From an uncultured Phycisphaerales bacterium (GTDB lineage: Bacteria > Planctomycetota > Phycisphaerae > Phycisphaerales > SM1A02), in NCBI GenBank assembly GCA_949373145.1, contig CASICI010000008.1, positions 63,078 to 127,077 of the forward strand: a stretch of DNA of 64,000 bases, given 5' to 3'. Every line of letters starts with the position of its first letter. Position 1 is the stretch's first letter. The notes under the pieces were generated by a model. It was not told where the DNA came from. It worked only from the letters and a program-made list of their open reading frames with translations, and made no database searches. Of the stretch, positions 2,149-21,127 are shown one piece after another. The translations under genes and the position numbers were made by a program.

Positions 2149-2209
2149 GGGAATTTCCGTTCGTAACTTCAAATGAACCAACACTGGATTCCGTTCCTCG
2201 AGGAGCGGA

Positions 2210-2488
2210 TCAGAAGAGCTGGATCGAGTCCTCCGAGTGAACTTTCACGATTGCTCGTTTGATCGAGCCCGTGGTGACGTAGCCGTGCTTGCGGCGAAGC
2301 GTCTCGCCCCGACGCCGCTGAGTCGCGACACCGACGACACGTACGCCGTAGATTTCTTCAACCGCACGCTTCACGTCGGCCTTGTTGGCCCGACGATCGA
2401 TTTCGAACGTGAATCGGTTGCATTCGTTGGAGTCGATCGTCGCCTTTTCGGTGATGACCGGCTTCTTAATGATCGTGGTGGCTTCCAT
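2210..2488 (-). CDS. rplW: 50S ribosomal protein L23
   Basis: 92-aa ORF with an L23-like sequence (KPVITEKA...). Its start overlaps the rplD stop by 1 nt (TAATG). Confidence 0.9.
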   Translation of the reverse strand: MEATTIIKKPVITEKATIDSNECNRFTFEIDRRANKADVKRAVEEIYGVRVVGVATQRRRGETLRRKHGYVTTGSIKRAIVKVHSEDSIQLF

Positions 2489-3165: not shown

Positions 3166-3325
3166 CGTCTCATTACCTTGCCGGGCCTTCTGGCCCGCTT
3201 TCGCCGTTCTCTCCGCGCATCTGTCGATATCGATGCGGGGCAGAGGTTGACTCAGGTCCTTGGTGTTGTCACGAACGAGTGGTTCCGTCGCCCCACAGGG
3301 GTGGCGGCCTTCTCGATCTCAGCGG

Positions 3326-3988: not shown

Positions 3989-4130
3989 TCCTACTTTTCT
4001 GCCGACGAGTTCGATGTGGCATGTCTGTCTTTCAGAGTCTCGAGGTTGTAGTCAGAGGTTCGTGAACGTGACTGGAATTTCAGAACGAAGAAGGCCGCTC
4101 ATTCGTGAGCGACCGGAGGTATGTCAAGGC

Positions 4131-4439
<309 letters not shown>

Positions 4440-4842
4440 AGGGGACCAATCCAAACCGATTCAAAGAGGAGTGTCACCGAAGTGGTGAGTCGTCCCTGCC
4501 GTTCAAGCGATGGACTGCACGTTGCGGTCCATCTCGCGCACCCTTCTTCAAGGAAGACGTCCGGTCTTTTCTGCTGCGCACGAAGGTGACTTCGATCCAG
4601 GAACGATCAGACGGTCGGTCTCTCGAACACTCGGAACACAGAGTGAAGGACCTTCCTGACGTGCGGTGGCGGACGCTGTTAAGACAGGACGCCTGCATGG
4701 AGACAGGCGCGAATCGGAGATGATAGGGATTCGACCTAGCCTGTCAACACGCCCGGAGCTTGGGGCCAAGAGAATACGGGGACTGGGATCGGAGCTGGAG
4801 CCACATGGCAGGGGCTCAAGTCAGGTAGAATGGGCGCCTGAA

Positions 4843-5463
4843 ATGACGCTGCATCGAATCATCCTCTTGTACGGCGCACTGTTCACGGCAACTCTGCCCT
4901 GCTCTGAAGCTGTCGGCTGGACCAATCCGCTGGAAACGGGTCTCATAAGAACCGCCCTGAAATGGACGGAAAAGCCTTTTCAGCCACAACAGGACGTTTC
5001 CACCGAGCCAGAGTCTGTCGAAGGGTACTCCGAAGAACTGGGGCTCCGGTATCCCACCGGACCCGGAATCGCGGCCAGAACGATTCGGGCCAACGGCCAA
5101 GTGATCCTCGAACTGCAGGACACCAGTACTCCACCAAAATGGAAGATTTCTCTTCAGAAAACGCAGGTGGCGCAACTTGGAGAAACGACCCACCTCACGA
5201 ATCGACACACTTCTGCAGGGCCTGAAGTCTCGAAACGACCCACGCCACTCTTGATGGAACGCAGCACACTGAAGATTCGGGTCATGGGCTGGCCGGAATC
5301 ACAGGGTTTTCCCGCAGAATTGATGTATCTGAATGTCCCCCTCGATGGTGACCGCACTGGTCGTCAGTGGCCTTTTGATCATCAGACGGGCTTTCGAACT
5401 TTCTCTACGGGACGCTCTTTGCCGAAGGCGAGTCCTTCGACGCCACCCTCAAACCGATGCTGA
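4843..5463 (+). CDS. hypothetical protein with predicted N-terminal signal peptide
   Basis: Internal ATG at 4843 gives MTLHRIILLYGALFTATLPCSEAVG..., which is signal-peptide-like. I recognised no family. Third-position GC looks weak after about 5330, so the 3' part may not be coding in this frame. Confidence 0.35.
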   Translation: MTLHRIILLYGALFTATLPCSEAVGWTNPLETGLIRTALKWTEKPFQPQQDVSTEPESVEGYSEELGLRYPTGPGIAARTIRANGQVILELQDTSTPPKWKISLQKTQVAQLGETTHLTNRHTSAGPEVSKRPTPLLMERSTLKIRVMGWPESQGFPAELMYLNVPLDGDRTGRQWPFDHQTGFRTFSTGRSLPKASPSTPPSNRC

Positions 5464-5469
5464 ACGAGC

Positions 5470-6378
5470 ATGTATGCCGACCTTCGAATCGAACCCGAGG
5501 ACACTCGGCGCCAGCTCGACTCCACAAGAATCGCTTCCGGAACCCAATTGATCGACACTGATCACTCCGGAGGTCCTTCGAACCATCGCGACCGATACGA
5601 CCCGAGATCTACAGCATCTATGAAGAAGGTCCGGATGGGACCGCGACCGAGAATCGGCTGGCAGAGGCTCTCCACCAGACTGGCACCGATCGAGGCGGTC
5701 GAAGGCAGAATCCCCTCGGAGGATCCCAAAAAGGAGGATCTCGGCCTTCTGATCACCCTTGAAGGTGAAATCGTCAGTGGATTCACCCAGTCCAAGGTGA
5801 CCACCGACACCATTCGAAGACATTGGATCTCACTCGATCGCACCCGAGAACGCTGGTCCGTGCAACGAACCCCCCGAAGAATCATTTCGAGTGGACCCGG
5901 CGGGTTGAATCGGAAGTGGGAAACACCAAGGCGGAAACAGGCGTCGGAACGCCCCCTCAGCCACGATCCACCATCACAATCATCGACTCAGAAGGCATTC
6001 GACAGACCCTCGATGTCCCCCAGCCACCCGTTCCATACATGACTCAGACCGAGTTGTACGTCCTGGGAAGAATCCTGAACCAGATCACATTGACCGACGA
6101 AGTGCAGGCCGACTGGTACGTCCTGGATCGCTCGATCCCTCGTGGTGACGGGATCAGAAAACGACAGGATCGAATCATGCCCATCCCGCGAAGATGGCGG
6201 ATGGACCGTCTCCACGTTCGGCCCTTCAGGAACGTTTCAGCAGAAATTCGATGCCGATGGCTCCAGGCTGTTCAGGCGAACCCCCATCATGGATGGCGAT
6301 CGTCTTCTGATCCTTGAGAAAACAGACCCTAATCGCCTGCTTGAGCTCTATGCTGAACAGGGAATCCCCACCCGTTGA
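5470..6378 (+). pseudogene. unknown coding region whose protein-like signal hops between frames (possible disrupted gene or genes)
   Basis: Protein-like stretches with GC-rich third positions occur in different plus frames. Examples: 5415-5470 LFAEGESFDATLKPMLNEHV, 5960-6190 TITIIDSEGIRQTLDVPQPPVPYMTQTELYVLGRILNQITLTDEVQADWYVLDRSIP, and 6190-6378 DGGWTVSTFGPSGTFQQKFDADGSRLFRRTPIMDGDRLLILEKTDPNRLLELYAEQGIPTR. No family recognised. Confidence 0.25.
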
Positions 6379-6430
6379 GTGATCATCTCGACATCAAGAC
6401 AACTCAAAGACATGTTTCACGAGGCATGAC

Positions 6431-7194
6431 ATGAATCAAGCGTCGCACGAATCCACGAAGGATCGCTCGAGAATCCTTCTGGCCATCCCCGTCTACAACG
6501 AAGCCAAGTACATCGAACCCGTTCTCAGCGAGGTCGGAAAGTATGCACGAGACATTCTGGTGGTCGACGATGGTTCGACCGACGACACTCCCCTGCTGCT
6601 CGCGAAACATCAGGTCGAAGTGATCCGCCATGCGGTCAACCGAGGCTACGGGCGTTCGATCACGGACATGTTGCGCTGGGCGGACTTCGATGGATACGAC
6701 TGGCTCATCACGATGGACTGCGATGAGCAGCACGAACCTGCCGCCATTCCGGAGTTCATCGAGGCGATCGAGACGATGGACGCCGATGTGATCTCGGGAA
6801 GTCGCTATCTGGTCGACGGAAGAAGGCAGCGACACGCCACCGGCAGACCGACGAGCGATCAACGGCATCATCACCGAAGAGATCAATCAACTTCTGGGAT
6901 TCAAACTGACGGATGCCTTCTGCGGCTTCAAGGCGTACCGGATCTCATCCTGCAAGGCGTTGTCTCTGGACATCACCGGGTATGAATTCCCGATGCAGTT
7001 CTGGGTTCAGGCGGCCGCGCAAGAAGCTTCGAATCGCGGAGATTCCGGTGCGTCTGATCTACAACGACCCCACCAGAAGCTTCGGGGGACCGCTCGATCA
7101 ATCCGACAACAGACTGGCCTCGTATCGCTCGACGATCCAGAGAGAGCTCGACCGCTGCGCGGATGAGCTGTCCATGTTGAAACTGAACGGATGA
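6431..7194 (+). pseudogene. family-2 glycosyltransferase (DPM1-like) interrupted by two +1 frameshifts
   Basis: Frame 2 gives ILLAIPVYNEAKYIEPVL...VVDDGSTDDT...DCDEQHEP...SGSRYL. The sequence then continues one base further on as EEGSDTPPADRRAINGIITEEINQLLGFKLTDAFCGFKAYRISSCKALSLDITGYEFPMQFWVQAA. It continues one more base on as KKLRIAEIPVRLIYNDPTRSFGGPLD.... The break points lie within 6792-6830 and at about 7017-7022. Confidence 0.8.
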
Positions 7195-7198
7195 TCAG

Positions 7199-8420
7199 AT
7201 GAGTCGAGGGACTCTCCTCTGCGGACACCAACCTGGTTTTCATCACCCGGGCATTCTCGCGAAGAGAGTCATGCAGCACGCCTGCGCCTCATCCGACGGC
7301 GTCGAGGCGACCTGGATGCTGGTCGATCAGGATGTCGGCGACCCGGGAGCGATCCGGTACCCCGATCTGAACGATCGAGGCGAGCTGATCGAAGGAACCT
7401 GGCACGCCGTCTCGCACCTGAGCGACCATCCGACGGGCACCACCGAATGGACGGGTGCACTTGACCGAACCACCCCGGGTCTCGAAGGAGATGCCGGACT
7501 CCGTGCAAAGAGGACTGCAGGACATCCACCGCGCGCTCCATGACGCGGAAGGCGACACGCTGGCCGAGCGCTTTCACACGGCACAGGAACAACTCCTCCA
7601 GACACGACTCCCTGATCTGGTCGGTCCGACTCCGGAGACCCTGCGTGCCACGACGATTCTCGAGAGCGATGCCGGCAACGCCATGGTGTCCTCGGTGCTC
7701 GAGTCGCCCGTAGCCTGCGCGTTGGCCTGGAACGAAGCAGGACGTCTGGTGCCCAGAGCCGCTCGAGCCCTGAAGATCGACCGAGCGACGCCTCACCGAA
7801 CGGAAGTCCCCTGCTGGACGCTTGACGATGCCGGGCGCCGAATCCCCGCGACGGTCGAGGATCTGCAGAGACATCGTGATGGCACGGGTGTGATTCATCC
7901 CCGAGCTTTCTTGATGACTGCCGTGCTTCGTTCGACCAGCACGCTTCCCATGATTCATGGAACCGGTGGCGAACGGTACGAACGGGTCACCGATCGATGG
8001 GCCGCCGAATTCCTCGGACTCGACCTGCCCTCCATCCGCGTCTGCACGGCTGACCTGCGACTGCCGCTGGAAGCACCGGGCGCCGAACTGGACGAGGTCG
8101 ATCCACAGGACGCACTCAGACGCCTGGAGCATGACCCCTGGCCGGACGAGACGACCAAGGCGGACCTCGCAGAGGCGATCAGACTCGCGCCACGTCGAAG
8201 CGTCGAAAGACGCCGACTGTTCGATGAGATGCAGTCGATGCTTCGTGCGGAGAGAGACCGTCAGGCACCACGACTGGAAGCACTCAGGGAGGAAGGCAGA
8301 CTCCAGAGTCTCCACTCGGGGCAGCGGCGCGTGGCCAGAGACCGAAGCTGGGCATGGCCGCTCCATGAAGATCAGGCCCTTCGCGGACTCGAGCTCAGGA
8401 CCTCACCACTCGAGGGATGA
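7199..8420 (+). pseudogene. uncharacterised protein, apparently one gene with a +1 frameshift near 7422-7460
   Basis: ORF 7199-7543 (MSRGTLLCGHQPGFHHPGILAK...) has GC-rich third positions only up to about 7450. From there the +1 frame (ORF 7455-8420) carries the coding signal, and that frame is open from 7422. The N-terminal G-H-Q-x-G...P-G...K...W-x4-D-x-D pattern weakly recalls the BshC-family N-terminus (low confidence). Confidence 0.5.
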
Positions 8421-8435
8421 CCAGAACCGGGTGGC

Positions 8436-10547
8436 TCAGTTGCACGGGCCCCAGCCACTGAGCAAGACGGTCAGGTCCGAACCACCGATCACCAAGTCAC
8501 CGTTGAGATCGAGCAACGGATCCTCCTCACCCCAGCTGGAGAGGAGCTGAGTCAGATCGCTGCCATTGATCACGCCATCCTGGTTGTAATCACCGGGGCA
8601 GGAACAGTCTGAATTTCCACCGTCATCCACCCAGTCATCGGAATCGATGTTCTCGGGCTGGTTGTCGCAGAGGGATGTCTCTTGAATGTGGAGACGCGAA
8701 CCGTCACCGGAGACGAAGATGCCGCCACCGGCAAGCGCCTCGTTTTCGAGGATCTCGACTCCGTCGATCAAGGTCACGCTGTCGCTGAGATCGTGAAGCA
8801 TCAGGGAGATCGCGCCGCCATGCTCGACTGCGATGTTCGAGCGCAGAGCGCCACCCTCGATGGTCGTCCCACCTTCGAGGATGTGCAGGGCACCACCTGA
8901 ACGGCCGGCAAGATTGGAATCGAATTCACAGTCCACGATGTCCATCGCGGAGTCGATCGAAAGGATCGCGCCGCCATCAAGCACGGCTTCATTGGAGATG
9001 AACTGACATCGATCGAGCTTCGCATCGGACGCCTGAGCGTAGAGTCCACCACCGAAGTCGGAACGACTGGAGGCGATCGTGCAGTCCTCGATCAGAGGCG
9101 AAGCGCCACTGATGAAGATCGCGCCACCCACCAGCACCGAAGGTGCCTCGGGGAACGGACTTCCAGTGTTGCCGTTGATGATGGTGAATCCTCTGAGGAT
9201 CGAGTCCTGGGTTTCCGCCGTGACGAATCGAACGATGGAGCCCTCAAGGCCTTCACCATCGAGAATCGTGGTCTCGGCACCCTTCGAGCCGTAGACCGTC
9301 ACGGCCTTGCCGAGGAAGTCGAGGCGTTCGGCATAGGTACCGGCATCCACTCGGATCACGTCACCCGAGACGGCCGCTTCGATCGCACTCTGGATCGTCA
9401 TGAACTCGGAGGGGACGTCGAGCTCCTTGTCTTCGCAGACATCGGGCACTCCGTTGAGATCGGCATCGGCATAGGTGCCATCGAGGATCTGTCGGTAGTC
9501 GATGATTCCGTCACTGTTGCAGTCGTCGGACCATTCGATGAAGTACCCGGTGGAGAGGCGCATGCCGTTTTCACAGTCCTGCTGAGCGGCTCCGCTCACG
9601 TCGACCCACTCCGGAGTCAAGGTGGAGGAGGAGATCGCAAAGGCCATGAAGGAGACCTGGGCTTCGCCGTCGCAACTGGAGTCGTCCGGCTGGTTCTGAG
9701 CCCAACGATCGAGCTCGAAGGCTTCACCGGTCACCCAACGCCAACCCCCGGCGGGCTCGACGTAATCGAATGCGGAAAGATTCTGATAGCCGCCGAGCCA
9801 GACATGTGATTCCAGACCGCTGTCGAAGGTCATGTAGCTGAAGAATCGCTCCTCGAGGAACGACATTTCGGCGTCGTCGGAGAGGGTCACGAGATGTCCA
9901 CCCAGCGCACGAGCCTGTTCGTCCGCATTCTCCCAGGTGATGCCACCGGCATCAGCGGAGGAGACGTACAGGTAGAGGTGGCCGTTGCCACCGAGTTCGG
10001 TGGGCCAGAGGACGGGTTCACCCATCTCGACACAGTCGGCCACACCATTGCCATCGATGTCCTGGTCGAGAACACCACAGCCGCAGGTTCCAGGCTCGAT
10101 CTTGTTCGAATCCTCGGGACACTCATCGATGCAATCCGGGGTGCCGTCACCATCGGTGTCACCTTCGGGAAGACCGCAGCCACAGTCGCCGGCGAGAATC
10201 TTCTCGGGATCATCGGGGCAGTCGTCGAGGCAGTCGAAGGTTCCGTCGGAATCGGTGTCGACATCGGCCACGCCACATCCACAGGTCCCGGCAAGCGTCT
10301 TCGAGGCATCATCCGGACATTCGTCATCACAGTCGGCGGTGCCGTCGCCATCACTGTCATCATCGGAGACGCCGCAGCCACAGGATCCGGCGCTCGTCTT
10401 CGCAGCGTCATCGGGACAGTCGTCCGTGCAGTCGGCGGTTCCATCACCATCGCTGTCGTCGTCGGAGACGCCGCACCCGCATGAACCGACGACCACCTTC
10501 AGAGGCATCCTCGGGGCAGTCATCCACACAGTCGGCGGTTCCGTCAC
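8436..10547 (-). CDS. C-terminal portion of the giant repeat protein: 5 TSP3-like repeats, C-type lectin fold, parallel beta-helix and dockerin-like tail
   Basis: 703-aa ORF starting at a GTG that overlaps the upstream stop (GTGA). Residues 23-176 are CGCG...DxDxDG..DC.D.CP repeats. GHLYLYV...WENADEQARALGGHLVTLSDDAEMSFLEE...HVWLGGYQ...WRWVTGEAF...WAQNQPDD is C-type-lectin-like. IQSAIEAAVSGDVIRVDAGTY followed by repetitive G/N/D-rich turns indicates a right-handed beta-helix. The C-terminus GDYNQDGVINGSDLTQLLSSWG...DLNGDLVIGGSDLTVLLSGWG is a dockerin/EF-hand-like pair. Confidence 0.8.
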   Translation of the reverse strand: MTEPPTVWMTAPRMPLKVVVGSCGCGVSDDDSDGDGTADCTDDCPDDAAKTSAGSCGCGVSDDDSDGDGTADCDDECPDDASKTLAGTCGCGVADVDTDSDGTFDCLDDCPDDPEKILAGDCGCGLPEGDTDGDGTPDCIDECPEDSNKIEPGTCGCGVLDQDIDGNGVADCVEMGEPVLWPTELGGNGHLYLYVSSADAGGITWENADEQARALGGHLVTLSDDAEMSFLEERFFSYMTFDSGLESHVWLGGYQNLSAFDYVEPAGGWRWVTGEAFELDRWAQNQPDDSSCDGEAQVSFMAFAISSSTLTPEWVDVSGAAQQDCENGMRLSTGYFIEWSDDCNSDGIIDYRQILDGTYADADLNGVPDVCEDKELDVPSEFMTIQSAIEAAVSGDVIRVDAGTYAERLDFLGKAVTVYGSKGAETTILDGEGLEGSIVRFVTAETQDSILRGFTIINGNTGSPFPEAPSVLVGGAIFISGASPLIEDCTIASSRSDFGGGLYAQASDAKLDRCQFISNEAVLDGGAILSIDSAMDIVDCEFDSNLAGRSGGALHILEGGTTIEGGALRSNIAVEHGGAISLMLHDLSDSVTLIDGVEILENEALAGGGIFVSGDGSRLHIQETSLCDNQPENIDSDDWVDDGGNSDCSCPGDYNQDGVINGSDLTQLLSSWGEEDPLLDLNGDLVIGGSDLTVLLSGWGPCN

Positions 10548-13500
10548 CAGTCGGTATCGGCATCAAGGACACCACACCCACAGGCACCCGCGGTGACCTT
10601 CGACGCGTCATCGGGGCAGTCATCGAGGCAGTCAGCGGTGCCATCCGAATCGGTGTCGGTGTCGGCGATGCCGCAGCCGCAGAGGCCGGCGAGAATCTTG
10701 GAGGGATCCTCGGGACACTCATCCACACAGTCGGCGGTTCCATCCAGGTCGGTGTCGGTTTCGATCACGTCGCACCCGCAGGCACCGGCGACGACCTTGT
10801 CGGCATTCAGAGGACATTCGTCGTTGCAATCGAGGGTGCCGTCGGCATCACTGTCAGAGTCGGGCACGCCACAACCGCAGGTTCCGGCGACGACCTTGGT
10901 GGGATCACCGGGACAGTCATCATCGCAGTCCGGGGTGCCGTCGGCATCGGAGTCGTCATCGGAGACACCGCAGCCACAGGTTCCGGGAGAGGTCTTCTCG
11001 AAGTCGACCGGACAGTCATCGAGGCAGTCCGGAGTGCCATCGGAATCCGTGTCGGTCTCCGGCACGAAACACCCACAGGCACCGGGAAGAACCTTGGCTT
11101 CATCAAAGGGACACTCGTCAAGACAGTTCGGAGTGCCATCGGAATCGCTGTCGAGGTCGGGGGCACCGCAACCACAGTCTCCAGGGGTGATCTTGAGAGG
11201 ATCGGCAGGACAGTCATCGAAACAGTCAAGCGTGCCATCTGAATCGGTGTCGGCATCGGAGACGCCGCAGCCGCAGGCACCGGCCACGCTCTTCAGAGGA
11301 TCACCGGGGCACTCATCGACACAGTCGGCCGTGCCATCCGCGTCGGCATCGAGATCGGCGATGCCACAACCACAGGCACCCGGGAGTGTCTTGAGGGGAT
11401 CGGTCGGACAGTCATCGAGACAATCAGCGGTGCCATCAGCATCGGAGTCGGTGTCAGCGACACCACAACCGCATGCGCCGACTGCGATCTTCAGAACGTC
11501 ATCAGGGCAGTCATCGACACAGTCAGCGGTGCCATCGGAGTCCGTGTCGGTATCAGCGACACCACAACCACACACACCGGCTTCGGTCTTCAGAACGTCA
11601 TCAGGACAGCCATCGACACAGTCGGCGGTGCCATCGGCGTCCGTGTCGGTGTCGGCGACACCACAACCGCACACACCGGCTTCGGTCTTCAGAACGTCAT
11701 CAGGACAGCCATCGACACAGTCGGCCGTGCCATCCGCGTCCGTGTCGGTGTCGGCGATGCCGCAGCCACAGAGTCCGGCTTCGGTCTTCAGAACATCATC
11801 AGGGCAGCCATCGACGCAGTCGGCCGTACCATCCGCGTCCGTGTCGGTGTCGACGATGCCGCAGCCACAGAGTCCGGCTTCGGTCTTCAGAACATCATCA
11901 GGACAGTCATCGAGACAGTCCGCCGTACCATCCGCGTCCGTGTCGGTGTCGGCGATGCCGCAGCCACAGAGTCCGGCTTCGGTCTTCAGAACATCATCAG
12001 GACAGTCATCGAGACAGTCGGCCGTGCCGTCGGAATCAGTATCCGTCTCGGCCACGCCGCATCCGCAGTCGCCCACTTCAGTCTTCAGAACATCCTCAGG
12101 GCAGTCATCGAGACAGTCGGCCGTGCCGTCCCCATCGGTGTCGGTGTCGGCGACGCCGCACCCACAGAGTCCGGCTTCGGTCTTCAGAACATCATCAGGG
12201 CAGCCATCGAGACAGTCGGCCGTGCCGTCGGAATCAGTATCCGTCTCGGCCACGCCGCACCCGCACGCACCCGCTTCAGTCTTCAGAACATCATCGGGGC
12301 AGCCATCAAGACAGTCCGCTGTGCCATCGGCATCAGTGTCGGTGTCGGCGACGCCGCACCCACAGTCACCTGGCTCGGTCTTCGAGACGTCGTTGGGACA
12401 TTGGTCAAGACAGTCCGCCGTGCCGTCGGAATCAGCATCCGTGTCGGCCACGCCGCATCCGCAGTCGCCCGCTTCAGTCTTCAGAACATCCTCAGGGCAG
12501 TCATCAATGCAGTCCGCCGTGCCGTCGGCATCCGTGTCGGTGTCGGCGATGCCGCAGCCACAGAGTCCAGCTTCGGTCTTCAGAACATCATCAGGGCAGT
12601 CATCGAGACAGTCGGCCGTGCCGTCGGAATCAGTATCCGTGTCGGCGATGCCGCAGCCACAGAGTCCGGCTTCGGTCTTCAGAACATCATCAGGGCAGTC
12701 ATCGAGACAGTCGGCCGTGCCGTCGGAATCAGTATCCGTCTCGGCGATGCCGCAGCCACAGAGTCCGGCTTCGGTCTTCAGAACATCATCAGGGCAGCCA
12801 TCAAGACAGTCCGCTGTGCCATCGGCATCAGTGTCAGTGTCGGCGACGCCGCACCCACAGTCACCTGGCTCGGTCTTCGAGACGTCGTCGGGACATTGGT
12901 CAAGACAGTCCGCCGTGCCGTCGGAATCAGCATCCGTCTCGGCCACGCCGCATCCGCAGTCGCCCGCGTCAATCTTCAGAACATCTGCAGGACAGCCATC
13001 AATGCAGTCCGCCGTGCCGTCGGCATCAGTGTCGGTGTCAGCGACGCCGCACCCACAGTCGCCTGGCTCGGTCTTCGAGACGTCGTTGGGACATTGGTCA
13101 AGACAGTCGGCCGTGCCGTCGGAATCAGCATCCGTGTCGGCCACGCCGCAGCCGCAGTCGCCCGCTTCAGTCTTCAGAACATCAGCAGGACAGCCATCAA
13201 GACAGTCGAGGGTGCCGTCGCCATCGGTGTCGGCGTCGGCAACGCCGCACCCGCACTCGCCCGCGTCGGTCTTCAAGACATCGTCGGGGCATCCATCAAG
13301 GCAGTCAGCGGTGCCATCCAAATCGGTGTCGGTGTCGGCAACGCCGCACCCGCACTCGCCCGCGTCGGTCTTCAAGACATCGTCGGGGCATCCATCGAGG
13401 CAATCAGCGGTGCCATCCAAATCGGTGTCGGTGTCGGCAACGCCGCAGCCGCAGTCACCCGCGTCACTCTTCAACACGTCATCAGGGCAGCCATCGATGC

Positions 13501-16500
13501 AGTCGGCAGTCCCGTCAGAGTCACTGTCAAGATCTGCGACACCGCAGCCACAGTCACCGGCAAGAACCTTGGCAGGGTCAGCTGGACAGTCATCAAGGCA
13601 ATCGAATGTTCCATCGGAATCCGTATCAAGTTCCGCGACCCCACAGCCGCAGAGACCGGCTTCGATCTTCAGGACGTCATCGGGACAAGCATCAACGCAG
13701 TCGAGCGTGCCATCGCCATCGGTATCGACGTCGGCGAGGCCGCACCCACAGTCGCCTGGCTCGGTCTTCAAGACATCGTCGGGACAACCGTCAACGCAGT
13801 CGAGCGTGCCGTCACCATCGGTGTCCGTGTCGGCAACACCACATCCACAGTCACCGGGAACGGTCTTGAGAACATCGGTGGGACACTCATCGATGCAATC
13901 GGCGGTGCCGTCCGAGTCGGTATCGATGTCCGCCACACCACAGCCACAGTCACCAGGTTCGATCTTGAGTACGTCATCAGGGCATTGATCCGTGCAGTCG
14001 GCGGTGCCGTCACCATCGGTGTCGGTACCGATCTCTCCACAGCCACAATCGCCGGCAAGGATCTTGCTCGAGTCGTTCGGGCACTCGTCGACACAGTCAG
14101 CCGTCCCGTCGGAGTCCGTGTCGAGGTCGGCGATACCGCACCCGCACGCACCCGCGTCAGTCTTGAGGACATCCTCGGGACAACCATCGACGCAGTCGAG
14201 CGTGCCGTCGCCATCGGTGTCGATGTCGGCCACGCCGCAGCCGCACTCGCCGGTTTCAGTCTTCAACACGTCCTCAGGGCAACCATCGACGCAGTCGAGG
14301 GTGCCGTCGCCATCCGTGTCGGTGTCGGACACGCCGCACCCGCACTCGCCGGCTTCAGTCTTGAGAACATCTTCAGGACATCCGTCGACGCAGTCGAGCG
14401 TGCCGTCGCCATCGGTGTCGGCGTCGGCAATGCCGCAGCCGCACTCACCCGCGTCCGTCTTCAGGAGATCGTCGGGGCAGCCGTCGAGGCAATCGGCGGT
14501 GCCGTCCCCATCAGTGTCGGTATCGGCAATGCCGCAGCCGCAGTCGCCCGCTTCAGTCTTCAGGAGGTCGTCGGGACAGCCGTCAACGCAGTCGAACGTG
14601 CCATCGGAATCGCTGTCGAGATCCTCGGCACCGCATCCGCACGTACCCACGAGAATCTTGCCTGGATCATCTGGACACTCGTCGACGCAGTCAGCCGTCC
14701 CGTCGGCGTCCGTGTCGAGATCAGCAATACCACAGCCACAGATGCCGGCGTCGATCTTCAGAAGGTCCTCAGGGCAACCATCGACGCAGTCGAGGGTGCC
14801 GTCGCCATCCGTGTCGGTGTCGGACACGCCGCACCCGCACTCGCCGGCTTCAGTCTTCAGAACATCTTCAGGACATCCGTCGACGCAGTCGAGCGTGCCG
14901 TCGCCATCGGTGTCGGTGTCGGCAATGCCGCAGCCGCACTCACCCGCGTCCGTCTTCAGGAGGTCGTCGGGGCAGCCGTCGAGGCAGTCGGCGGTGCCGT
15001 CCCCATCGGTGTCGGTATCGGCAATGCCGCAGCCGCAGTCGCCCGCTTCAGTCTTCAGGAGGTCGTCGGGACAGCCGTCAACGCAGTCGAACGTGCCATC
15101 GGAATCGCTGTCGAGATCCTCGACACCGCATCCGCACGTACCCACGAGAATCTTGCCTGGATCATCTGGACACTCGTCGACGCAGTCAGCCGTCCCGTCG
15201 GCGTCCGTGTCGAGATCAGCAATACCACAGCCACAGATGCCGGCGTCGATCTTCAGAAGATCCTCAGGACAACCATCGACGCAGTCGAGGGTGCCGTCGC
15301 CATCCGTGTCGGTGTCGGACACGCCGCACCCGCACTCGCCGGCTTCAGTCTTCAGAACATCTTCAGGACATCCGTCGACGCAGTCGAGCGTGCCGTCGCC
15401 ATCGGTGTCGGCGTCGGCAATGCCGCAGCCGCACTCACCCGCGTCCGTCTTCAGGAGATCGTCGGGGCAGCCGTCGAGGCAGTCGGCGGTGCCGTCCCCA
15501 TCGGTGTCGGTGTCGGCAATGCCGCAGCCGCAGTCGCCCGCTTCAGTCTTCAGAACATCTTCAGGACAGCCGTCAACGCAGTCGAACGTGCCATCGGAAT
15601 CGCTGTCGAGATCCTCGACACCGCATCCGCACGTACCCACGAGAATCTTGCCTGGATCATCTGGACACTCGTCGACGCAGTCAGCCGTGCCATCGGCGTC
15701 CGTGTCGAGATCAGCAATACCACAGCCACAGATGCCGGCGTCGATCTTCAGAAGGTCCTCAGGGCAACCATCGACGCAGTCGAGGGTGCCGTCGCCATCC
15801 GTGTCGGTGTCGGACACGCCGCACCCGCACTCGCCGGCTTCAGTCTTCAGAACATCTTCAGGACATCCGTCGAGGCAATCGGAAACACCATCGGTATCGG
15901 TGTCGAGATCTTCCGTCCCGCACCCACAGTCCCCGGCGATTGACTTCAGAGGATCGATCGGACATTCATCGACGCAATCAGGTGATCCATCATCGTCGGT
16001 GTCGGTTTCGGGAAGGAAGCAGCCGCACGTCCCGGGGTCGATCTTCGTGGAATCGAACGGACAGAGATCGATGCAATTGGCGGTTCCGTCACCATCGGAA
16101 TCGATTTCCGGGATCTGGCAGCCACAGTCTCCCGCGAACACCTTGAGTGGGTCGCTGGGACACTCGTCAAGACAATCGATCGTACCGTCCGAGTCCGAAT
16201 CGACGTCGGAAACACCACAGCCACAGAGCCCGGCAGACGCCTTGAGTGGATCATTCGGACAGTCATCAAGGCAATCGACCGTGCCATCCAGGTCGGTGTC
16301 CGTTTCAGGGATACCGCAGCCACACAGACCTTCGAGCATCTTGAAGGGATCTTCAGGACAGTCGTCGAGGCAATCAGGAATCGAATCCAGATCGGTATCG
16401 ATCTCGGAGACCGAACAACCGCACTCGCCTTCGGTGGTCTTGTCGGGATCATCAGGGCAGTCGTCGTTGCAATCAAACGTGCCGTCACCATCGCTGTCGG

Positions 16501-19030
16501 TGTCGGACACACCACAACCACAGGTTCCTGCAGCGACCTTCGCCGCATCATCGGGACACTCGTCGTTGCAATCAAAGGTCCCGTCGCCGTCGCTGTCGGC
16601 ATCGGACACGCCGCAGCCACAGGTTCCCGCAGCGACCTTGGCCGCATCATCGGGGCAGCCATCAAGGCAGTCGGCGGTGCCGTCGCCATCGGTATCGGTG
16701 TCGGCGACACCGCAGCCGCAGTCGCCGGGCTCGATCTTCAGGAGATCTTCGGGGCATCCGTCGAGACAGTCAGCGGTACCGTCGGAATCCGTATCGGTCT
16801 CGGAGACGCCGCAGCCGCACGAGCCCGCTTCGGTCTTCAGGACATCATCGGGGCAGGCATCAAGACAGTCGGCGGTGCCGTCGGAGTCCGTGTCGGTGTC
16901 GGGAACACCGCAGCCACAGGCACCGGGCAGGATCTTGGTGGGATCGTCCGGACATTGATCATCACACTCGACGGTTCCGTCACCATCGGGGTCGAGGTCT
17001 TCGAATCCACAGCCGCAGACTCCGGACACGATCTTGAGTGGATCGAGCGGACAGCCGTCGACGCAGTCCAGCGTGCCATCGCCATCGGTGTCATCATCGG
17101 CGACCAGGCACCCACACTCACCAGCGAGAATCTTCGCCGCGTCGGTGGGACAGTCATCATTGCAGTCGACGGTTCCATCATCATCGGTGTCGGCATCCGA
17201 CACACCACATCCACAGATTCCTTCGAGGATCTTGTCGACGTCCTCGGGACACTCATCATTGCAATCGGGGGTGCCATCGGCATCGGAATCCGCCTCGGAC
17301 ACACCGCACCCGCAGAGTCCGGCAAGGATCTTGGTGGGATCGTCGGGACAGTCGTCGTTGCAATCAAACGTGCCGTCCAGATCCGTATCGACATCGGCAA
17401 CACCGCAACCACAGACGCCGGGAACGACCTTGTCGGGATCATCGGGACATTGATCTTCGCAATCAGGCTGACCGTCGCCGTTGAAATCCTCTTCGGACAC
17501 GCCGCAGCCACAGACGCCCGGATCGATCTTGGCCGAGTCGGCGGGACAGTCGTCGAGGCAGTCGGGGGTGCCATCGGCATCGGAATCGACTTCGGAGACA
17601 CCACACCCGCATGAACCAGCGAGGGACTTGTCGGGATCGGTCACACATTCATCGAGGCAGTCGGGGACACCATCGAAATCGGTGTCGATGTCCGCAACAC
17701 CGCAGCCACACTCGCCCAGGGAGATCTTCGTCGGATCGTCGGGGCAGGCATCGATGCAGTCGGGTGCACCATCCGAGTCACTGTCGGTCTCGGGCGCGGA
17801 ACAACCGCAGAGACCGGGTTGAGTCTTGTCGGCATCGAAGGGACAGGAGTCAATGCAGTTGGGTGAACCATCACCGTCTGAATCGATGTCGGGAATACCG
17901 CAGCCACAAATGCCGGGTTCAGTCTTGTTGGGATCGAAGGGACAGGTCTCATTGCAGTCAAGGGTGCCGTCCGAGTCGGTGTCGACGTCCACGAGTCCGC
18001 AGCCACAGAAACCAGGTGTGGTTTTCGCGGGATCTTCGGGACACGCATCGATGCAATCCGGGAAGGAGTCACCATCGGTGTCGATGTCCAGGATCTCGCA
18101 GCCACAGGCACCTGGTTGGATCTTGTTGACGTTGTCCGGGCAGCCATCGACACAATCAGGGATTCCGTCACCATCGGTGTCCAGTTCATCGACCCCGCAC
18201 CCGCAGAAGAGCGGGTCGGACTTCAGGGGATCGTCGGGACAGTCATCGACGCAATCAAAGGCACCATCACCATCGGAGTCCAGGTCGAGCAGACCGCAGC
18301 CGCAGCCCCCCGGTTCGATCTTGTTCTGGTCGAATGGACAGCCATCGAAGCAGTCGAGCGTGCCGTCTTCGTCGAAGTCGGAATCGAGCACGCCGCATCC
18401 ACAGATGCCGACCTCGATCTTGTTGGGGTCGACGGGACAGTCATCAAGGCAGTCAAGGGTCCCATCACCATCGCTGTCGATGTCGGACACTCCGCAGCCA
18501 CACAGACCCGCTTCACTCTTGAAGGGGTCATCGATGCAGCCATCGATGCAGTCCGAGACTCCATCACCATCGGAGTCGACGTCGGCACCGACGCATTGAT
18601 CGCATCCATCCGGGACACCATCGAGGTCTTCATCGACGGCGTCATCGGAACCTGGACAGATGTCGTCACAGTTCAGGACACCATCGCCATCGGCGTCACC
18701 TTCCGCGAAGTCGCATCCACAGACGCCGGGTTCGATCTTCTCGGAATTCAGTGGACACAGATCGTCGCAGTCGAGGGTGCCGTCACCGTCGGAATCAGCA
18801 TCGGAAAGACCACACCCGCAGAGACCGGGGGCGACCTTGGCAGGATCATCGATGCAGCCATCGAGGCAATCCGCGGTCCCATCACCATCGGTGTCGATCT
18901 CCGAAAAACCACACCCACACTGACCGAGGTCGACCTTGCTGGAATCATCGGGGCAGTCATCACAGGCGTCGATGACACCGTCGAAATCACTGTCGAGGTC
19001 ACAGGCATCATCAAGCCCGTTTTCATCACA
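10020..19030 (-). repeat. coding tandem array of 99-bp (33-codon) units, about 89 copies, spanning both ORFs of the giant locus
   Basis: I counted 83 full units plus one broken unit in the 3527-aa ORF and 5 more in the 703-aa ORF. Central units are near-identical at the DNA level and outer units more diverged. Confidence 0.9.
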
Positions 19031-21127
19031 GTCACCGGACTCACGCTTGACGACCAGCTCGATGCGCCAGCCTGCAAGCACACCGGGGTTGTCTTCAGCC
19101 TCATCGGAAATCTTGAGCGTCCACTTGCCGGAGCCGTTTCGACCGGCGAAGACGGGAGACATGAGTTGCTTGGGAACGAAACTGAAATCGTTTCGAAGAT
19201 CCTGAGTCACATCACTGAAGGGCGCGCTGGGGCAGAAATTCCGCTGGCCATCGTCCCTGAAGCGGAAGATGCCGTTGAAGTGCCATGTCGAGCCGCAGTC
19301 ATCCGAGATCAGCGCGGAACGCTGCTGGGAATTTTCATCGAGATGGAAGAGCTCGATCTTCAGTTCTTCAGCCCAGGTCTGCTGGATGTCGTCGATGTAG
19401 AGCCTGACCTCGACGATTTCACCGACGGTTGTAGGAACGTCGATCACACTGAGGAAGGAACCGAAACCATCGGGGATCGCTCCGCCTTCTCCGCTCATCC
19501 TGATGATGCGTTCATCACATTCGACCGCCTGGCATTCATCTGGAATGCCGTCGTTGTCGTCGTCTTCGCTGAGTCCGAGTTCGATGTCCAGCGCATCATC
19601 GATGTCGTTGCCATTGCAGTCGATGTCGAAAGGAAGAGCGTTTCTGAGTTCGTTGATGTCGGAGAGACTGATCACACCATCGAGATCGAAATCCGCCACG
19701 GCGCAGGGATCATCGGGGGTGACGGACGAGCCGAGGCATTCCAGGGCAAGTGCGAGGTCCGAGGAGTCGAGATCGTTGTCTCCGTCCATGTCGAATTCGC
19801 GTTTGCCGAGAGACTCGAGGAACTCGACGATCTGGACGCGTCCCTCCGGCTCGAGATCATCGAATTCACGACGAGACCGGTTCGCCTCGCCACGATGGAC
19901 GTCGACCACCTCGACGATGCGATCGAAGAACGAAGGCGATGCAGCACGTCCATCGTGAAGCAACCTGGTCCGATTTCGCAGATTCCAAAGCGCTGGCGTA
20001 CGAAAGTGCGAATCAGTGGCGATGCCATCGATGATTCGGTCGCGCAATCGACTTCCCATGTCGTGCAGGAGCAGGTCGCTGTACGGCTTGATCGTCTTGC
20101 TTCGAAGAGCATCTTCAAGACCAGGGTCGTCGGAAGTCACCCAACTCGGTCGGTGGCAGCCGGCACAACCGATGTCGATGAACAACTGCTCTCCGGTCAT
20201 CCCGGAGGGAGGCGTCTGCGGCGGGGCCGCCAGAAATCTCTGGAAGTCATTCACTCGAGCGAGGAAGGAATCGGGATTGGTTCTCGGGTCGGGCAGTTCG
20301 GGATCAGGGACCGTGTCGCACGCGAAATTCGGACCATCCGGTCCGTTGGGAAGACTCTCAAGAGGCATGAACGGACTGGTCAGGCCGAGTTCTTCCTTGG
20401 AAGCTCCGATGGAAAAGGTGAGCACCGTCGGGGCCTGGGATTTCCAACCGAATCGACCGACTTTTTCAACTGCGCCAGGCTGACCGACGTCTTCTCGTGG
20501 CATGACCATTCGTGCGAGACCACGGATGCCGTCGCCGTCCAAGTCTTCGGGGTCCGCGCCCGCGATGATTTCATCCTCGGGGATCGCTTCGATCAGACCG
20601 TAGCCGAGTGTGCCAAGAGTCAGACGAGGTGTCACCACGTTCGTGAACGCCGGCACATCTTCGGGACCACACGCGAGATCGACCCCGGGGATCACTTCAG
20701 ACTGCAGCACCGGACCACCGAGATGTTCCAAGGGATCGAAGGTGTTGTCTGCAAAACGACCGAAATTGATGACCGTGATCACACCCGCGCCACCCAGAGG
20801 CTGGGAATGACAGGCGCCACAGAAGCGCTTGTTGTAGATCGGACCAAGCCCCTGCTCGACCGTCACCGGCGTGCTGTACGCCACCAACCCACTCTCGAAA
20901 CGAGCAAACTCTTCAGGAGAGAGACCGGGGAGAGGATCTCCCGCGATGGGCTGAAGTGTTGGCGAGTTGGAATCCTGGGGTGCGGAATTGGCCTTGGTGC
21001 TGCAAAATCCTGCGAAAACAAGCGCGAAAAGCATGACCACTGATTGGAAGCATCGGCTGAAGGCGGAGGAATGACCCCTGGCTCTACCCGCAGAAACGAT
21101 GGAAGTGTTGTCAATTCTTTCGAACAT
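10544..21127 (-). CDS. giant secreted or cell-surface protein: DUF1111-type di-haem domain, P-domain-like module and about 84 thrombospondin-type-3-like Cys/Asp repeats
   Basis: An uninterrupted 3527-aa ORF with a hydrophobic N-terminal segment (VVMLFALVFAGFC). Two CXXCH motifs (CGACH, codons 103-107; CAGCH, codons 321-325) sit in DUF1111-like context: RFGWKSQ, PYSDLLLHDMG, FRTPALWNL, LLHDGRA, HRGEA...FLESL. P-domain-like ending GKWTLKISDEAEDNPGVLAGWRIELV. From residue 737 onward there are 33-aa units of the form CGCGvaDtDtDgDGTaDClDgCPdDvlKteaG. Confidence 0.9.
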   Translation of the reverse strand: MFERIDNTSIVSAGRARGHSSAFSRCFQSVVMLFALVFAGFCSTKANSAPQDSNSPTLQPIAGDPLPGLSPEEFARFESGLVAYSTPVTVEQGLGPIYNKRFCGACHSQPLGGAGVITVINFGRFADNTFDPLEHLGGPVLQSEVIPGVDLACGPEDVPAFTNVVTPRLTLGTLGYGLIEAIPEDEIIAGADPEDLDGDGIRGLARMVMPREDVGQPGAVEKVGRFGWKSQAPTVLTFSIGASKEELGLTSPFMPLESLPNGPDGPNFACDTVPDPELPDPRTNPDSFLARVNDFQRFLAAPPQTPPSGMTGEQLFIDIGCAGCHRPSWVTSDDPGLEDALRSKTIKPYSDLLLHDMGSRLRDRIIDGIATDSHFRTPALWNLRNRTRLLHDGRAASPSFFDRIVEVVDVHRGEANRSRREFDDLEPEGRVQIVEFLESLGKREFDMDGDNDLDSSDLALALECLGSSVTPDDPCAVADFDLDGVISLSDINELRNALPFDIDCNGNDIDDALDIELGLSEDDDNDGIPDECQAVECDERIIRMSGEGGAIPDGFGSFLSVIDVPTTVGEIVEVRLYIDDIQQTWAEELKIELFHLDENSQQRSALISDDCGSTWHFNGIFRFRDDGQRNFCPSAPFSDVTQDLRNDFSFVPKQLMSPVFAGRNGSGKWTLKISDEAEDNPGVLAGWRIELVVKRESGDCDENGLDDACDLDSDFDGVIDACDDCPDDSSKVDLGQCGCGFSEIDTDGDGTADCLDGCIDDPAKVAPGLCGCGLSDADSDGDGTLDCDDLCPLNSEKIEPGVCGCDFAEGDADGDGVLNCDDICPGSDDAVDEDLDGVPDGCDQCVGADVDSDGDGVSDCIDGCIDDPFKSEAGLCGCGVSDIDSDGDGTLDCLDDCPVDPNKIEVGICGCGVLDSDFDEDGTLDCFDGCPFDQNKIEPGGCGCGLLDLDSDGDGAFDCVDDCPDDPLKSDPLFCGCGVDELDTDGDGIPDCVDGCPDNVNKIQPGACGCEILDIDTDGDSFPDCIDACPEDPAKTTPGFCGCGLVDVDTDSDGTLDCNETCPFDPNKTEPGICGCGIPDIDSDGDGSPNCIDSCPFDADKTQPGLCGCSAPETDSDSDGAPDCIDACPDDPTKISLGECGCGVADIDTDFDGVPDCLDECVTDPDKSLAGSCGCGVSEVDSDADGTPDCLDDCPADSAKIDPGVCGCGVSEEDFNGDGQPDCEDQCPDDPDKVVPGVCGCGVADVDTDLDGTFDCNDDCPDDPTKILAGLCGCGVSEADSDADGTPDCNDECPEDVDKILEGICGCGVSDADTDDDGTVDCNDDCPTDAAKILAGECGCLVADDDTDGDGTLDCVDGCPLDPLKIVSGVCGCGFEDLDPDGDGTVECDDQCPDDPTKILPGACGCGVPDTDTDSDGTADCLDACPDDVLKTEAGSCGCGVSETDTDSDGTADCLDGCPEDLLKIEPGDCGCGVADTDTDGDGTADCLDGCPDDAAKVAAGTCGCGVSDADSDGDGTFDCNDECPDDAAKVAAGTCGCGVSDTDSDGDGTFDCNDDCPDDPDKTTEGECGCSVSEIDTDLDSIPDCLDDCPEDPFKMLEGLCGCGIPETDTDLDGTVDCLDDCPNDPLKASAGLCGCGVSDVDSDSDGTIDCLDECPSDPLKVFAGDCGCQIPEIDSDGDGTANCIDLCPFDSTKIDPGTCGCFLPETDTDDDGSPDCVDECPIDPLKSIAGDCGCGTEDLDTDTDGVSDCLDGCPEDVLKTEAGECGCGVSDTDTDGDGTLDCVDGCPEDLLKIDAGICGCGIADLDTDADGTADCVDECPDDPGKILVGTCGCGVEDLDSDSDGTFDCVDGCPEDVLKTEAGDCGCGIADTDTDGDGTADCLDGCPDDLLKTDAGECGCGIADADTDGDGTLDCVDGCPEDVLKTEAGECGCGVSDTDTDGDGTLDCVDGCPEDLLKIDAGICGCGIADLDTDADGTADCVDECPDDPGKILVGTCGCGVEDLDSDSDGTFDCVDGCPDDLLKTEAGDCGCGIADTDTDGDGTADCLDGCPDDLLKTDAGECGCGIADTDTDGDGTLDCVDGCPEDVLKTEAGECGCGVSDTDTDGDGTLDCVDGCPEDLLKIDAGICGCGIADLDTDADGTADCVDECPDDPGKILVGTCGCGAEDLDSDSDGTFDCVDGCPDDLLKTEAGDCGCGIADTDTDGDGTADCLDGCPDDLLKTDAGECGCGIADADTDGDGTLDCVDGCPEDVLKTEAGECGCGVSDTDTDGDGTLDCVDGCPEDVLKTETGECGCGVADIDTDGDGTLDCVDGCPEDVLKTDAGACGCGIADLDTDSDGTADCVDECPNDSSKILAGDCGCGEIGTDTDGDGTADCTDQCPDDVLKIEPGDCGCGVADIDTDSDGTADCIDECPTDVLKTVPGDCGCGVADTDTDGDGTLDCVDGCPDDVLKTEPGDCGCGLADVDTDGDGTLDCVDACPDDVLKIEAGLCGCGVAELDTDSDGTFDCLDDCPADPAKVLAGDCGCGVADLDSDSDGTADCIDGCPDDVLKSDAGDCGCGVADTDTDLDGTADCLDGCPDDVLKTDAGECGCGVADTDTDLDGTADCLDGCPDDVLKTDAGECGCGVADADTDGDGTLDCLDGCPADVLKTEAGDCGCGVADTDADSDGTADCLDQCPNDVSKTEPGDCGCGVADTDTDADGTADCIDGCPADVLKIDAGDCGCGVAETDADSDGTADCLDQCPDDVSKTEPGDCGCGVADTDTDADGTADCLDGCPDDVLKTEAGLCGCGIAETDTDSDGTADCLDDCPDDVLKTEAGLCGCGIADTDTDSDGTADCLDDCPDDVLKTEAGLCGCGIADTDTDADGTADCIDDCPEDVLKTEAGDCGCGVADTDADSDGTADCLDQCPNDVSKTEPGDCGCGVADTDTDADGTADCLDGCPDDVLKTEAGACGCGVAETDTDSDGTADCLDGCPDDVLKTEAGLCGCGVADTDTDGDGTADCLDDCPEDVLKTEVGDCGCGVAETDTDSDGTADCLDDCPDDVLKTEAGLCGCGIADTDTDADGTADCLDDCPDDVLKTEAGLCGCGIVDTDTDADGTADCVDGCPDDVLKTEAGLCGCGIADTDTDADGTADCVDGCPDDVLKTEAGVCGCGVADTDTDADGTADCVDGCPDDVLKTEAGVCGCGVADTDTDSDGTADCVDDCPDDVLKIAVGACGCGVADTDSDADGTADCLDDCPTDPLKTLPGACGCGIADLDADADGTADCVDECPGDPLKSVAGACGCGVSDADTDSDGTLDCFDDCPADPLKITPGDCGCGAPDLDSDSDGTPNCLDECPFDEAKVLPGACGCFVPETDTDSDGTPDCLDDCPVDFEKTSPGTCGCGVSDDDSDADGTPDCDDDCPGDPTKVVAGTCGCGVPDSDSDADGTLDCNDECPLNADKVVAGACGCDVIETDTDLDGTADCVDECPEDPSKILAGLCGCGIADTDTDSDGTADCLDDCPDDASKVTAGACGCGVLDADTDW
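14270..15872 (-). repeat. higher-order repeat: a 495-bp block (5 x 99 bp) in about 3.2 near-identical tandem copies
   Basis: The string aaccatcgacgcagtcgagggtgccgtcgccatccgtgtc recurs at 14281, 14776, 15271 and 15766, with an exact 495-bp period. The protein shows the same 5-unit block three times (GCPEDVLKTEAGECGCGVSDTDTDGDGTLDCVDGCPEDLLKIDAGICGCGIADLDTDADGTADCVDECPDDPGKILVGTCGCG...). Confidence 0.85.

Follow-up and report, generated by a model that had tools for sequence, protein, structure and literature searches.

The 64-kb window analyzed here (64,000 nucleotides; positions 63,078 to 127,077 of contig CASICI010000008.1, assembly GCA_949373145.1 of an uncultured Phycisphaerales bacterium) carries on its minus strand what we read, with a probability of roughly 60%, as one gene of ~4,229 codons for a secreted modular enzyme on a stalk, with the C-terminal modules serving as a tether. 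The source is a marine planctomycete, and homologues come mostly from Phycisphaerae. From its N-terminus, the predicted protein consists of a Sec leader, a DHOR head, an EF-hand pair, a P-domain, 89 thrombospondin type-3 (TSP3)-like units, a lectin-like module, a beta-helix, and a dockerin-like tail. This domain order recurs in relatives, the haem motifs are conserved, the repeat units are TSP3-like, and the gene is split by two +1 insertions. Feature coordinates are collected in Table 1.

We first consider the extent of the gene. An earlier note on this DNA had described a single 10.6-kb open reading frame (ORF). That ORF is present (10544..21127, minus strand, ATG start, 3,527 aa), but it is not the whole gene, which runs on to 8436 past the two insertions. 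Its stop falls inside repeat unit 84, where the C-terminal end is ...CGCGVLDADTDW followed by the stop codon. The downstream ORF (8436..10547, minus strand) has a GTG start overlapping this stop, begins ...PLKVVVGSCGCGVSDDDSDGDGTADC, and continues the repeats in another frame. It encodes 4 further full units and 1 degenerate unit, then the lectin-like module, the beta-helix, and the dockerin-like tail. Three-frame translation revealed that the unit switches frame twice within ~45 nt. Deleting two single bases (the T at ~10549 and one base in 10494-10509) resulted in one ORF of 4,229 codons and 89 units, in which unit 84 is a perfect 33 aa and reads CGCGVLDADTDGDGTADCVDDCPEDPLKVVVGS. There is no other stop codon in the 12.7-kb frame besides the break made by the insertions. 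Because the downstream ORF continues the units, removal of two bases gives a single ORF, and the C-terminal half of a complete 2,182-aa homologue aligns collinearly with the downstream ORF (E 2e-51 and 1e-47), we conclude that there is one gene rather than two. Programmed frameshifting was rejected as an explanation, since it would take two distinct +1 events at sites that are not slippery, the first of them directly before a stop codon.

The gene is therefore either a fresh pseudogene or the carrier of two local sequence errors. Unless both insertions are errors, its product would be 3,527 aa long and lack the tail (computed values for this product are 357 kDa, an isoelectric point of ~4.05, and 357 Cys). 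That both insertions are real is close to, but short of, an even chance in our estimation. The gene would then be a recently inactivated or truncated copy, yielding either nothing useful or a head and stalk that is released rather than tethered. Consistent with real insertions, the stop lies inside unit 84 with the next ORF in another frame, and other genes in the window show no general indel load. Most of those identified by Pfam match their profiles nearly end to end (e.g., Pantoate_ligase 1-267/268, Aminotran_5 1-370/371, and NifU_N 1-125/127), which argues that the assembly is not generally ridden with indels. Yet two independent insertions separated by only ~45 nt, in a 12.7-kb frame that is otherwise intact, resemble a single local event or a sequence-consensus error within a repeat, and every conserved residue of the head has been kept. 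Moreover, metagenome scans with the 30-mer between both sites and with the C-terminal 554 aa found no independent assembly of the species across the frameshifts. Exact look-ups of the 3,527-aa and 695-aa products returned no database record, and when the downstream ORF was searched against proteins, matches to the repeats dominated and no close relative of the tail was found.

The N-terminal leader, a signal anchor in the earlier note, is probably a cleavable Sec signal peptide, as read by eye, and an alternative start at M32 is used by a 99%-identical fragment (P0001). The earlier note had assigned the region behind it to the DUF1111 family, now DHOR, and profile searches agreed. PF06537 matched aa 168-440 of the first 740 aa at 140.6 bits against a cut-off of 22 (E 7.4e-41), and the N-terminal piece alone (aa 40-200, 161 aa) also passed at 25.7 bits, around the first CXXCH. 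The ORF contains exactly two C-x-x-C-H motifs, both where the earlier note had placed them, and one occurrence each of RFGWKSQ, LLHDMG, FRTPALWNL, HDGRA, and HRGEA. Loss of the CXXCH sites among homologues had been named beforehand as grounds for rejecting the assignment. In an alignment of 113 sequences, the second site was invariant (C321, C324, and H325, together with Y349, H355, H391, and H411; ORF numbering) and the first was at least 90% conserved (C103, C106, and H107, together with W228 and M357), with the qualification that this list by construction holds residues that the query carries. A scan of the first 1,540 aa against NCBIfam gave no match.

Structure prediction with AlphaFold2 (AF2) from the same 113-sequence alignment gave a predicted local distance difference test score (pLDDT) above 90 for most of the DHOR and EF-hand part. 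When the head was compared to the PDB with Foldseek, it matched solely di-haem cytochrome c peroxidases, MauG, MacA, and YhjA, with probabilities up to 0.99. Weak matches to dockerins fell on the EF-hand region and not on the head. Judging from these models, the head is probably a distant, structurally uncharacterised relative of the superfamily comprising bacterial cytochrome c peroxidases (bCCP) and MauG.

Two further modules anticipated by the earlier note were recovered behind the head. The EF-hand region matched a polcalcin EF-hand pair (E 1e-3), and the family profile matched calmodulin EF-hand pairs (E ~1e-6). The P-domain-like module passed PF01483 at 26.8-30.5 bits against a cut-off of 21, with just positions 42-85 of 86, the profile's C-terminal half, covered and an AF2 pLDDT below 50. 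A word-indexed protein search queried with no more than the P-domain segment (aa 510-740, window 18908-19600) came back empty even though one relative (P0002) holds the segment at ~92% identity; this result reflects the limit of a word index and is not evidence of absence. Toward the C-terminus, the beta-helix scored above the cut-offs of Beta_helix (PF13229; 26.8 versus 25.9 bits), Chlam_PMP (PF02415; 26 versus 20.6), and DUF1565 (22.2 versus 20.3).

Between the P-domain and the lectin-like module lies the repeat array, whose units follow the pattern CGCG-x3-DxDxDGxxDC-x-D-x-CP-x-D-x2-K-x3-G. The earlier count of about 84 units of 33 aa, each with four Cys and a DxDxDG motif, was right for the upstream ORF, which has 84 'CGC' starts spaced by exactly 33 aa in 82 of 83 intervals, but falls short of the gene total of 89. 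Every unit has C1, C3, C18, C22, two Asp, K28, and G2, and Asp makes up 24% of the array. TSP3-like motifs without CGCG precede unit 1 and sit within unit 3. The TSP_3 profile (PF02412) matched the first block (units 1-12) at 34.3 bits against a cut-off of 25, spanning profile positions 12-33 of 36, whereas the last block stayed below threshold at 19.9 bits and the tested core block (window 12008-13207) gave no match. A confident AF2 model of a 5-unit block matched solely TSP3-containing structures in Foldseek, namely Capnocytophaga OmpA (5wtl), COMP (3fby), and thrombospondins (2rhp, 1yo8, and 1ux6). Calling the units TSP type-3-like is justified on this modelling, with the caveat of one confident model in five.

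In the array, old and diverged outer units surround a core that was amplified recently. Units 31-45 form three near-identical 5-unit copies, and units 55-74 have 90-98% nucleotide identity to a sister unit. In units 1-30 and 75-83, identity to the best match elsewhere in the array is ~68-85%, and to the adjacent unit 54-78%. Such a pattern is what we would expect if the array grows and shrinks by unequal recombination. The number of units in the near-identical core depends on the assembly, and one assembly cannot certify it.

Arrays of this kind are not peculiar to this gene. The earlier note had treated the array as special, a view that did not survive a search of 1.84 billion proteins, in which an array-block profile found 11,515 representative proteins at E ≤ 1e-3 and 2,006 at E ≤ 1e-30. 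In NCBI, they go by the name 'thrombospondin type 3 repeat-containing protein'. Their other domains include a sulfatase with PA14 and a type IX secretion system tail (P0243), DUF7467 (P0242), Ig, lectin, metallophosphoesterase, VWA, CsgG, and others. The CGCG/TSP3 array is a generic, widespread bacterial spacer carrying many different heads. DHOR was absent from the best 270 array proteins. The longest of these 270 has 33 strict units versus 80 + 4 of the same pattern here, a comparison that is soft because many database entries are truncated. Two array proteins stood out for other reasons. P0247 (3,000 aa, Logan/ENA) has seven CXXCH motifs between blocks of CGCG/TSP3 units, the first with a Pfam match to Cytochrome_CBB3, and by its sequence would be an independent, unrelated way of placing haem on such a stalk. 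P0154 (1,036 aa, an MMETSP transcript) combines CGCG units at 56% identity to those of the window with a C-type lectin domain and may reflect either contamination by bacteria or genuine use of the module in a eukaryote.

Having characterized the modules, we turned to relatives of the whole protein. The head had 4,849 homologues at E ≤ 1e-5 among 8,000 scored candidates. The best 120 of these are nearly all ~550 aa long, come from metagenome-assembled genomes (MAGs) of Phycisphaerae/Planctomycetota, and combine DHOR with an EF-hand or dockerin module. Close homologues bear the NCBI name 'di-heme oxidoredictase family protein', and fragments at 99%, 92% (TARA), and 85% identity exist. In P0003 (579 aa, 85% identical in the head), the EF-hand region leads straight into the dockerin tail without an array. 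The base form of the family is DHOR, EF-hand, and C-terminal dockerin in ~550 aa. Longer forms include P0007 (744 aa; DHOR, EF, P-domain, and dockerin) and P0018 (DHOR, EF, P-domain, and TSP3, ending at a contig edge). Next to P0018, the Phycisphaerales MAG GCA_029246705.1 encodes the complete 2,182-aa homologue already mentioned (locus L001, 1461-8009). Its order is signal peptide, DHOR, EF, P-domain, CGCG units, two lectin-like modules, beta-helix, CGCG units, beta-helix, and dockerin. The module combination, which the earlier note regarded as unseen, therefore recurs in Phycisphaerae-type MAGs. On the L001 contig (JAQWMQ010000017.1), DHOR-P-domain-TSP3 paralogues stand in tandem, one complete at 2,182 aa and one of 801 aa cut by the contig end, with a 500-aa dockerin-like gene between them (1461-8009, 8209-9711, and 10001-12403). 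The second paralogue has classical TSP3 motifs without the CGCG signature.

The nearest genome among GTDB representatives is 'Planctomycetes bacterium TMED75', in which contig NHEC01000045.1 (locus L002) holds a syntenic orthologue. Four ORFs upstream of it (541, 503, 302, and 346 aa) match in size and order the window's genes for a class-II aminoacyl-tRNA synthetase (549 aa), a transglutaminase-like protein (500), an NAD(P)HX dehydratase (300), and an HD protein (341). The orthologue (at least 2,220 aa) is 63% identical over aa 58-736, and its array reaches the contig edge after at least 43 units. Between the two arrays, unit orthology was resolvable for few markers (units 2, 3, and 7, and window units 28-29 versus L002 units 26-27). 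TMED75 also encodes a second DHOR-EF-P-domain paralogue (P0361, 941 aa, partial, in the same 90% cluster as P0007), implying that stalked or extended forms are multi-copy within one genome. In the literature that we searched, no description of these giant DHOR fusions was found.

These relatives bear on whether the size of the gene is partly a product of assembly, with the copy number of the core collapsed or inflated and the indels marking a polishing or joining seam. We regard this as less likely than not. The high identity of the core units and of units 55-74, the proximity of the two indels, and the fact that public assemblies of relatives break in such arrays (the L002 and P0018 contigs end there) are all in keeping with it. 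However, the array stays in frame across all 84 units of the upstream ORF with its 33-aa spacing, its diverged periphery (units 1-30 and 75-89, 54-79% nucleotide identity) can be assembled from any type of read, and the orthologue independently reached its 43 or more units. A wholesale chimera of head and array, the outcome that the earlier note had allowed for, is unlikely: the fusion is real, since an independent syntenic orthologue and a complete homologue share its domain order.

Table 1. Features of the giant DHOR gene, in window coordinates
Feature	Position	Strand	Evidence
Whole gene as it must have been	8436..21127	-	split at present into adjoining ORFs 10544..21127 and 8436..10547; collinearity with the 2,182-aa L001 homologue, which is complete
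N-terminal leader (aa 1-48): basic n-region, hydrophobic VVMLFALVFAGFC, then KANS/APQ	20984..21127	-	read by eye
DHOR (DUF1111, PF06537) di-haem domain (aa ~55-440)	19808..20965	-	Pfam, AF2, Foldseek
First haem-c attachment motif, CGACH (aa 103-107)	20807..20821	-	conservation of at least 90% across 113 homologues
Second haem-c attachment motif, CAGCH (aa 321-325)	20153..20167	-	invariant in 113 homologues
EF-hand pair, dockerin-like Ca-binding module (aa 443-500)	19628..19801	-	conserved across the ~550-aa DHOR-dockerin family; AF2 confident
Proprotein-convertase P-domain-like module (aa ~546-700)	19028..19492	-	PF01483; also in homologues P0002, P0007, P0018, L001, and L002
TSP type-3-like array, 89 'CGC' units of 33 aa across both ORFs	10032..19027	-	motif scan, TSP_3, Foldseek
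Young core: units 31-45, three 495-bp (5-unit) copies with 95-100% nucleotide identity	14345..15829	-	DNA comparison
Frameshift 1: extra T (~nt 10549) in GAC-T-GGT-GAC inside unit 84, making a TGA stop at 10544-10546	10541..10552	-	frame translation, base-deletion test
Frameshift 2: one extra base within GATGCCTCTGAAGGTG, exact base ambiguous	10494..10509	-	dropping the G of GCC restores the consensus ...CPEDPLK
C-type-lectin-like module (downstream-ORF aa ~180-345)	9513..10010	-	alignment to both lectin-like modules in L001
Right-handed beta-helix with PMP-type repeats (downstream-ORF aa ~383-640)	8628..9401	-	Pfam above cut-offs
C-terminal dockerin-like double EF-loop tail (downstream-ORF aa 651-703)	8439..8597	-	same tail ends P0003, P0007, and the L001 2,182-aa protein

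How might such a protein work? It would be exported by Sec, with its haems attached and disulfides formed in the periplasm, as expected from c-type cytochrome maturation and Dsb oxidation in general. Calcium would stiffen the acidic array into a long spacer, in line with the calcium binding of TSP3 repeats and dockerins, and this spacer would measure ~130-270 nm if each unit spans an assumed 1.5-3 nm. Following the 'planctosome' proposal discussed below, the lectin-like, beta-helix, and dockerin modules may hold the protein on the cell surface or envelope, or on a cohesin-like partner. The N-terminal di-haem head would then work far from the cell, with peroxide or a metal (e.g., iron) as its most likely substrate. 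This head-on-stalk geometry is plausible because other bacteria combine the array with unrelated heads and with C-terminal sorting tails (e.g., P0243) and because a ~550-aa base form exists without the array; the C-terminal end is presumed to be the one proximal to the cell. Peroxide and iron are leads on substrate, drawn from the fold of the head and from the context of the family elsewhere.

Several findings weigh against the reading of a secreted, tethered enzyme. As sequenced, the gene is broken. Foldseek matches of the head are distant, with target template-modelling (TM) scores of 0.38-0.51 and root-mean-square deviations of 9-16 Å. PF03150 was not among the query's Pfam matches at E ≤ 0.01, and the homologue P0004 scored 14.1 bits against its cut-off of 25.6. 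Sequence searches of the PDB found no solved DHOR structure, and we know of no experiment on any member of the clade, so we can only infer haem binding and activity. In the 5-unit repeat block, one AF2 model reached a pLDDT of 91.8 while the other four had 30-42. Dockerin_1 (PF00404) stayed below its threshold of 22.9 bits both at aa 446-498 (18.3) and at the C-terminal tail (17.8), as did Lectin_C (PF00059; 18 versus 22.6). No cohesin gene is found within the 64-kb window. Pfam scans of nearly every ORF of at least 90 aa across the 64 kb identified no imelysin-like or DUF1513 genes. The imelysin/EfeO context that ties DUF1111 to iron uptake in other phyla is thus absent from the window, and membership in an iron-uptake operon was rejected.

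The earlier note had suggested a peroxidase-type matrix or adhesin protein, which is speculative. Another interpretation is that the protein is an adhesin or matrix protein whose DHOR head is a non-enzymatic module for binding haem or iron or for shuttling electrons, or that the protein stays periplasmic. Adhesins typically contain TSP3 arrays, lectin-like modules, and PMP-type beta-helices, the seven mono-haem cytochrome c motifs between the CGCG units of P0247 suggest that haem on such stalks serves as an electron carrier rather than in catalysis, and a Sec leader alone delivers to the periplasm and no further. We nevertheless consider this interpretation unlikely, as the head retains the full family-invariant set of His, Met, Tyr, and Trp besides both CXXCH sites, its fold matches solely enzymes of the peroxidase/MauG type, and relatives of ~550 aa without adhesin modules are abundant among the 4,849 matches.

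A more ambitious version of the stalked-enzyme reading is that of a working surface-tethered oxidoreductase with its head on a calcium-stiffened wire, docked into a cohesin-type planctosome and performing extracellular redox chemistry (oxidation or reduction of iron or manganese, or removal of peroxide). We think it improbable that all of this holds. If it were true, the protein would represent, together with P0247, a class of 'haem proteins on TSP3 stalks'.

The gene is chromosomal and its neighbours are housekeeping genes. The three loci of ~550-aa DHOR-dockerin proteins that were checked (L008, L009, and L010, encoding P0004, P0053, and P0013) all have FG-GAP_3 genes (800-838 aa) beside the DHOR gene, two of them also with UnbV_ASPIC; a gene bearing UnbV_ASPIC occurs in each of the three loci, and two have an adjacent TPR gene, which looks like a conserved neighbourhood of the ~550-aa clade. 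The giant gene does not have this neighbourhood. On its downstream side, a 365-aa ORF (7269..8366) and overlapping plus-strand ORFs had no family match and no similarity to the gene after the L001 homologue, and a scan for promoters and terminators yielded nothing usable. Several ORFs of 180-365 aa at 2578-6042 (+) and 7007-8430, that 365-aa ORF among them, had no Pfam match, and the coding strand is ambiguous for some of them.

Other genes in the window deserve mention in their own right. An 843-aa protein (39529-42060, minus strand) has a full Peptidase_C25 (gingipain-type) domain with E 1e-42. At 50900-51820 (+), a gene encodes a haem-binding family protein of the ChaN/Tiki type (PF04187, E 2e-45), and the next gene (51833-52813, +), immediately behind it, belongs to the sulfotransferase family. 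The genes rplW (L23) and rplB (L2) occupy 1294-2488 (-), and the ORFs where L4 and S19 would be expected (2578-3390, +, and 257-793, -) had no Pfam family match. The S10 operon may be broken up here.

These results have implications for both enzymology and genome databases. DHOR/DUF1111 is a large family with neither a solved structure nor a measured activity. Finding it as the presumed distal head of a secreted, stalked, dockerin-tailed protein points to a probable site of action outside the cytoplasmic membrane, likely at the cell surface, and the head (aa ~49-520) is a defined construct for biochemistry. In surface seawater, which is poor in iron and contains peroxide, a di-haem enzyme in an exposed position could play a part in acquiring metals or in defence against oxidants. 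This locus also illustrates how near-identical repeats of 99/495 bp truncate such genes in metagenome assemblies, with all related public copies but one ending at a contig edge. This implies that databases under-report such architectures.

When placed in context of known systems, the head most closely resembles PF06537 DHOR ('di-haem oxidoreductase, putative peroxidase'), whose profile it matches well above threshold, with both CXXCH motifs conserved. DUF1111 has been described as a putative di-haem peroxidase in operons with imelysin/EfeO-like proteins (and DUF1513) tied to iron uptake (PMC3143127; bioRxiv 10.1101/072470). Whereas the described members belong to such operons, here there is none, and the domain heads a 4,229-aa modular protein. 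Bacterial di-haem cytochrome c peroxidases and MauG (1zzh, 2vhd, 3l4m, 4aam, and 9qdt) have two haems and two cytochrome-c-like domains, a build that the head would share, and these are its sole fold matches. There is, however, no detectable sequence similarity to them, PF03150 included, and the low TM scores suggest that the modelled head has large insertions or another packing of its domains.

Among closer relatives, the ~550-aa DHOR-EF-hand-dockerin proteins have the head and EF-hand pair in common with the window gene (at 41-49% identity, or 85% in P0003), as well as its dockerin-like tail, but are without the P-domain, array, lectin-like module, and beta-helix. The giant fusions at L001 and L002 have the module order of the window gene, as far as L002 extends before its contig edge. 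They differ in unit number, the 89 of the window comparing with a dozen or so in L001 and no fewer than 43 in L002, and L001 has two lectin-like modules and two beta-helices, unlike the window gene. As to the repeats, the calcium loops (DxDxDGxxD) and paired Cys are those of TSP type-3 repeats (PF02412), including that of bacterial OmpA (5wtl), whereas the fixed length of 33 aa, the extra invariant CGCG, the conserved Lys, and the far longer array set the window units apart from the TSP3 repeats of thrombospondin.

At the level of whole assemblies, surface complexes built from P-domains, TSP3 repeats, and cohesin/dockerin pairs have been proposed as the 'planctosome' of freshwater Phycisphaerae (Andrei et al. 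2019, PMC6461901), and giant dockerin-type proteins have been described in Omnitrophota (bioRxiv 10.1101/2023.11.21.568195). These proteins are likewise secreted, mix P-domain, TSP3, and dockerin-cohesin modules, are read as calcium-dependent surface assemblies, and have repeats that break assemblies. Their models feature peptidases or glycan-binding modules with no haem domain reported, in contrast to the protein described here, for which no cohesin partner was identified. The architecture is thus an extreme combination of known modules (DHOR head, TSP3 spacer, and dockerin tail) that is undescribed in the literature searched but present in several MAGs.

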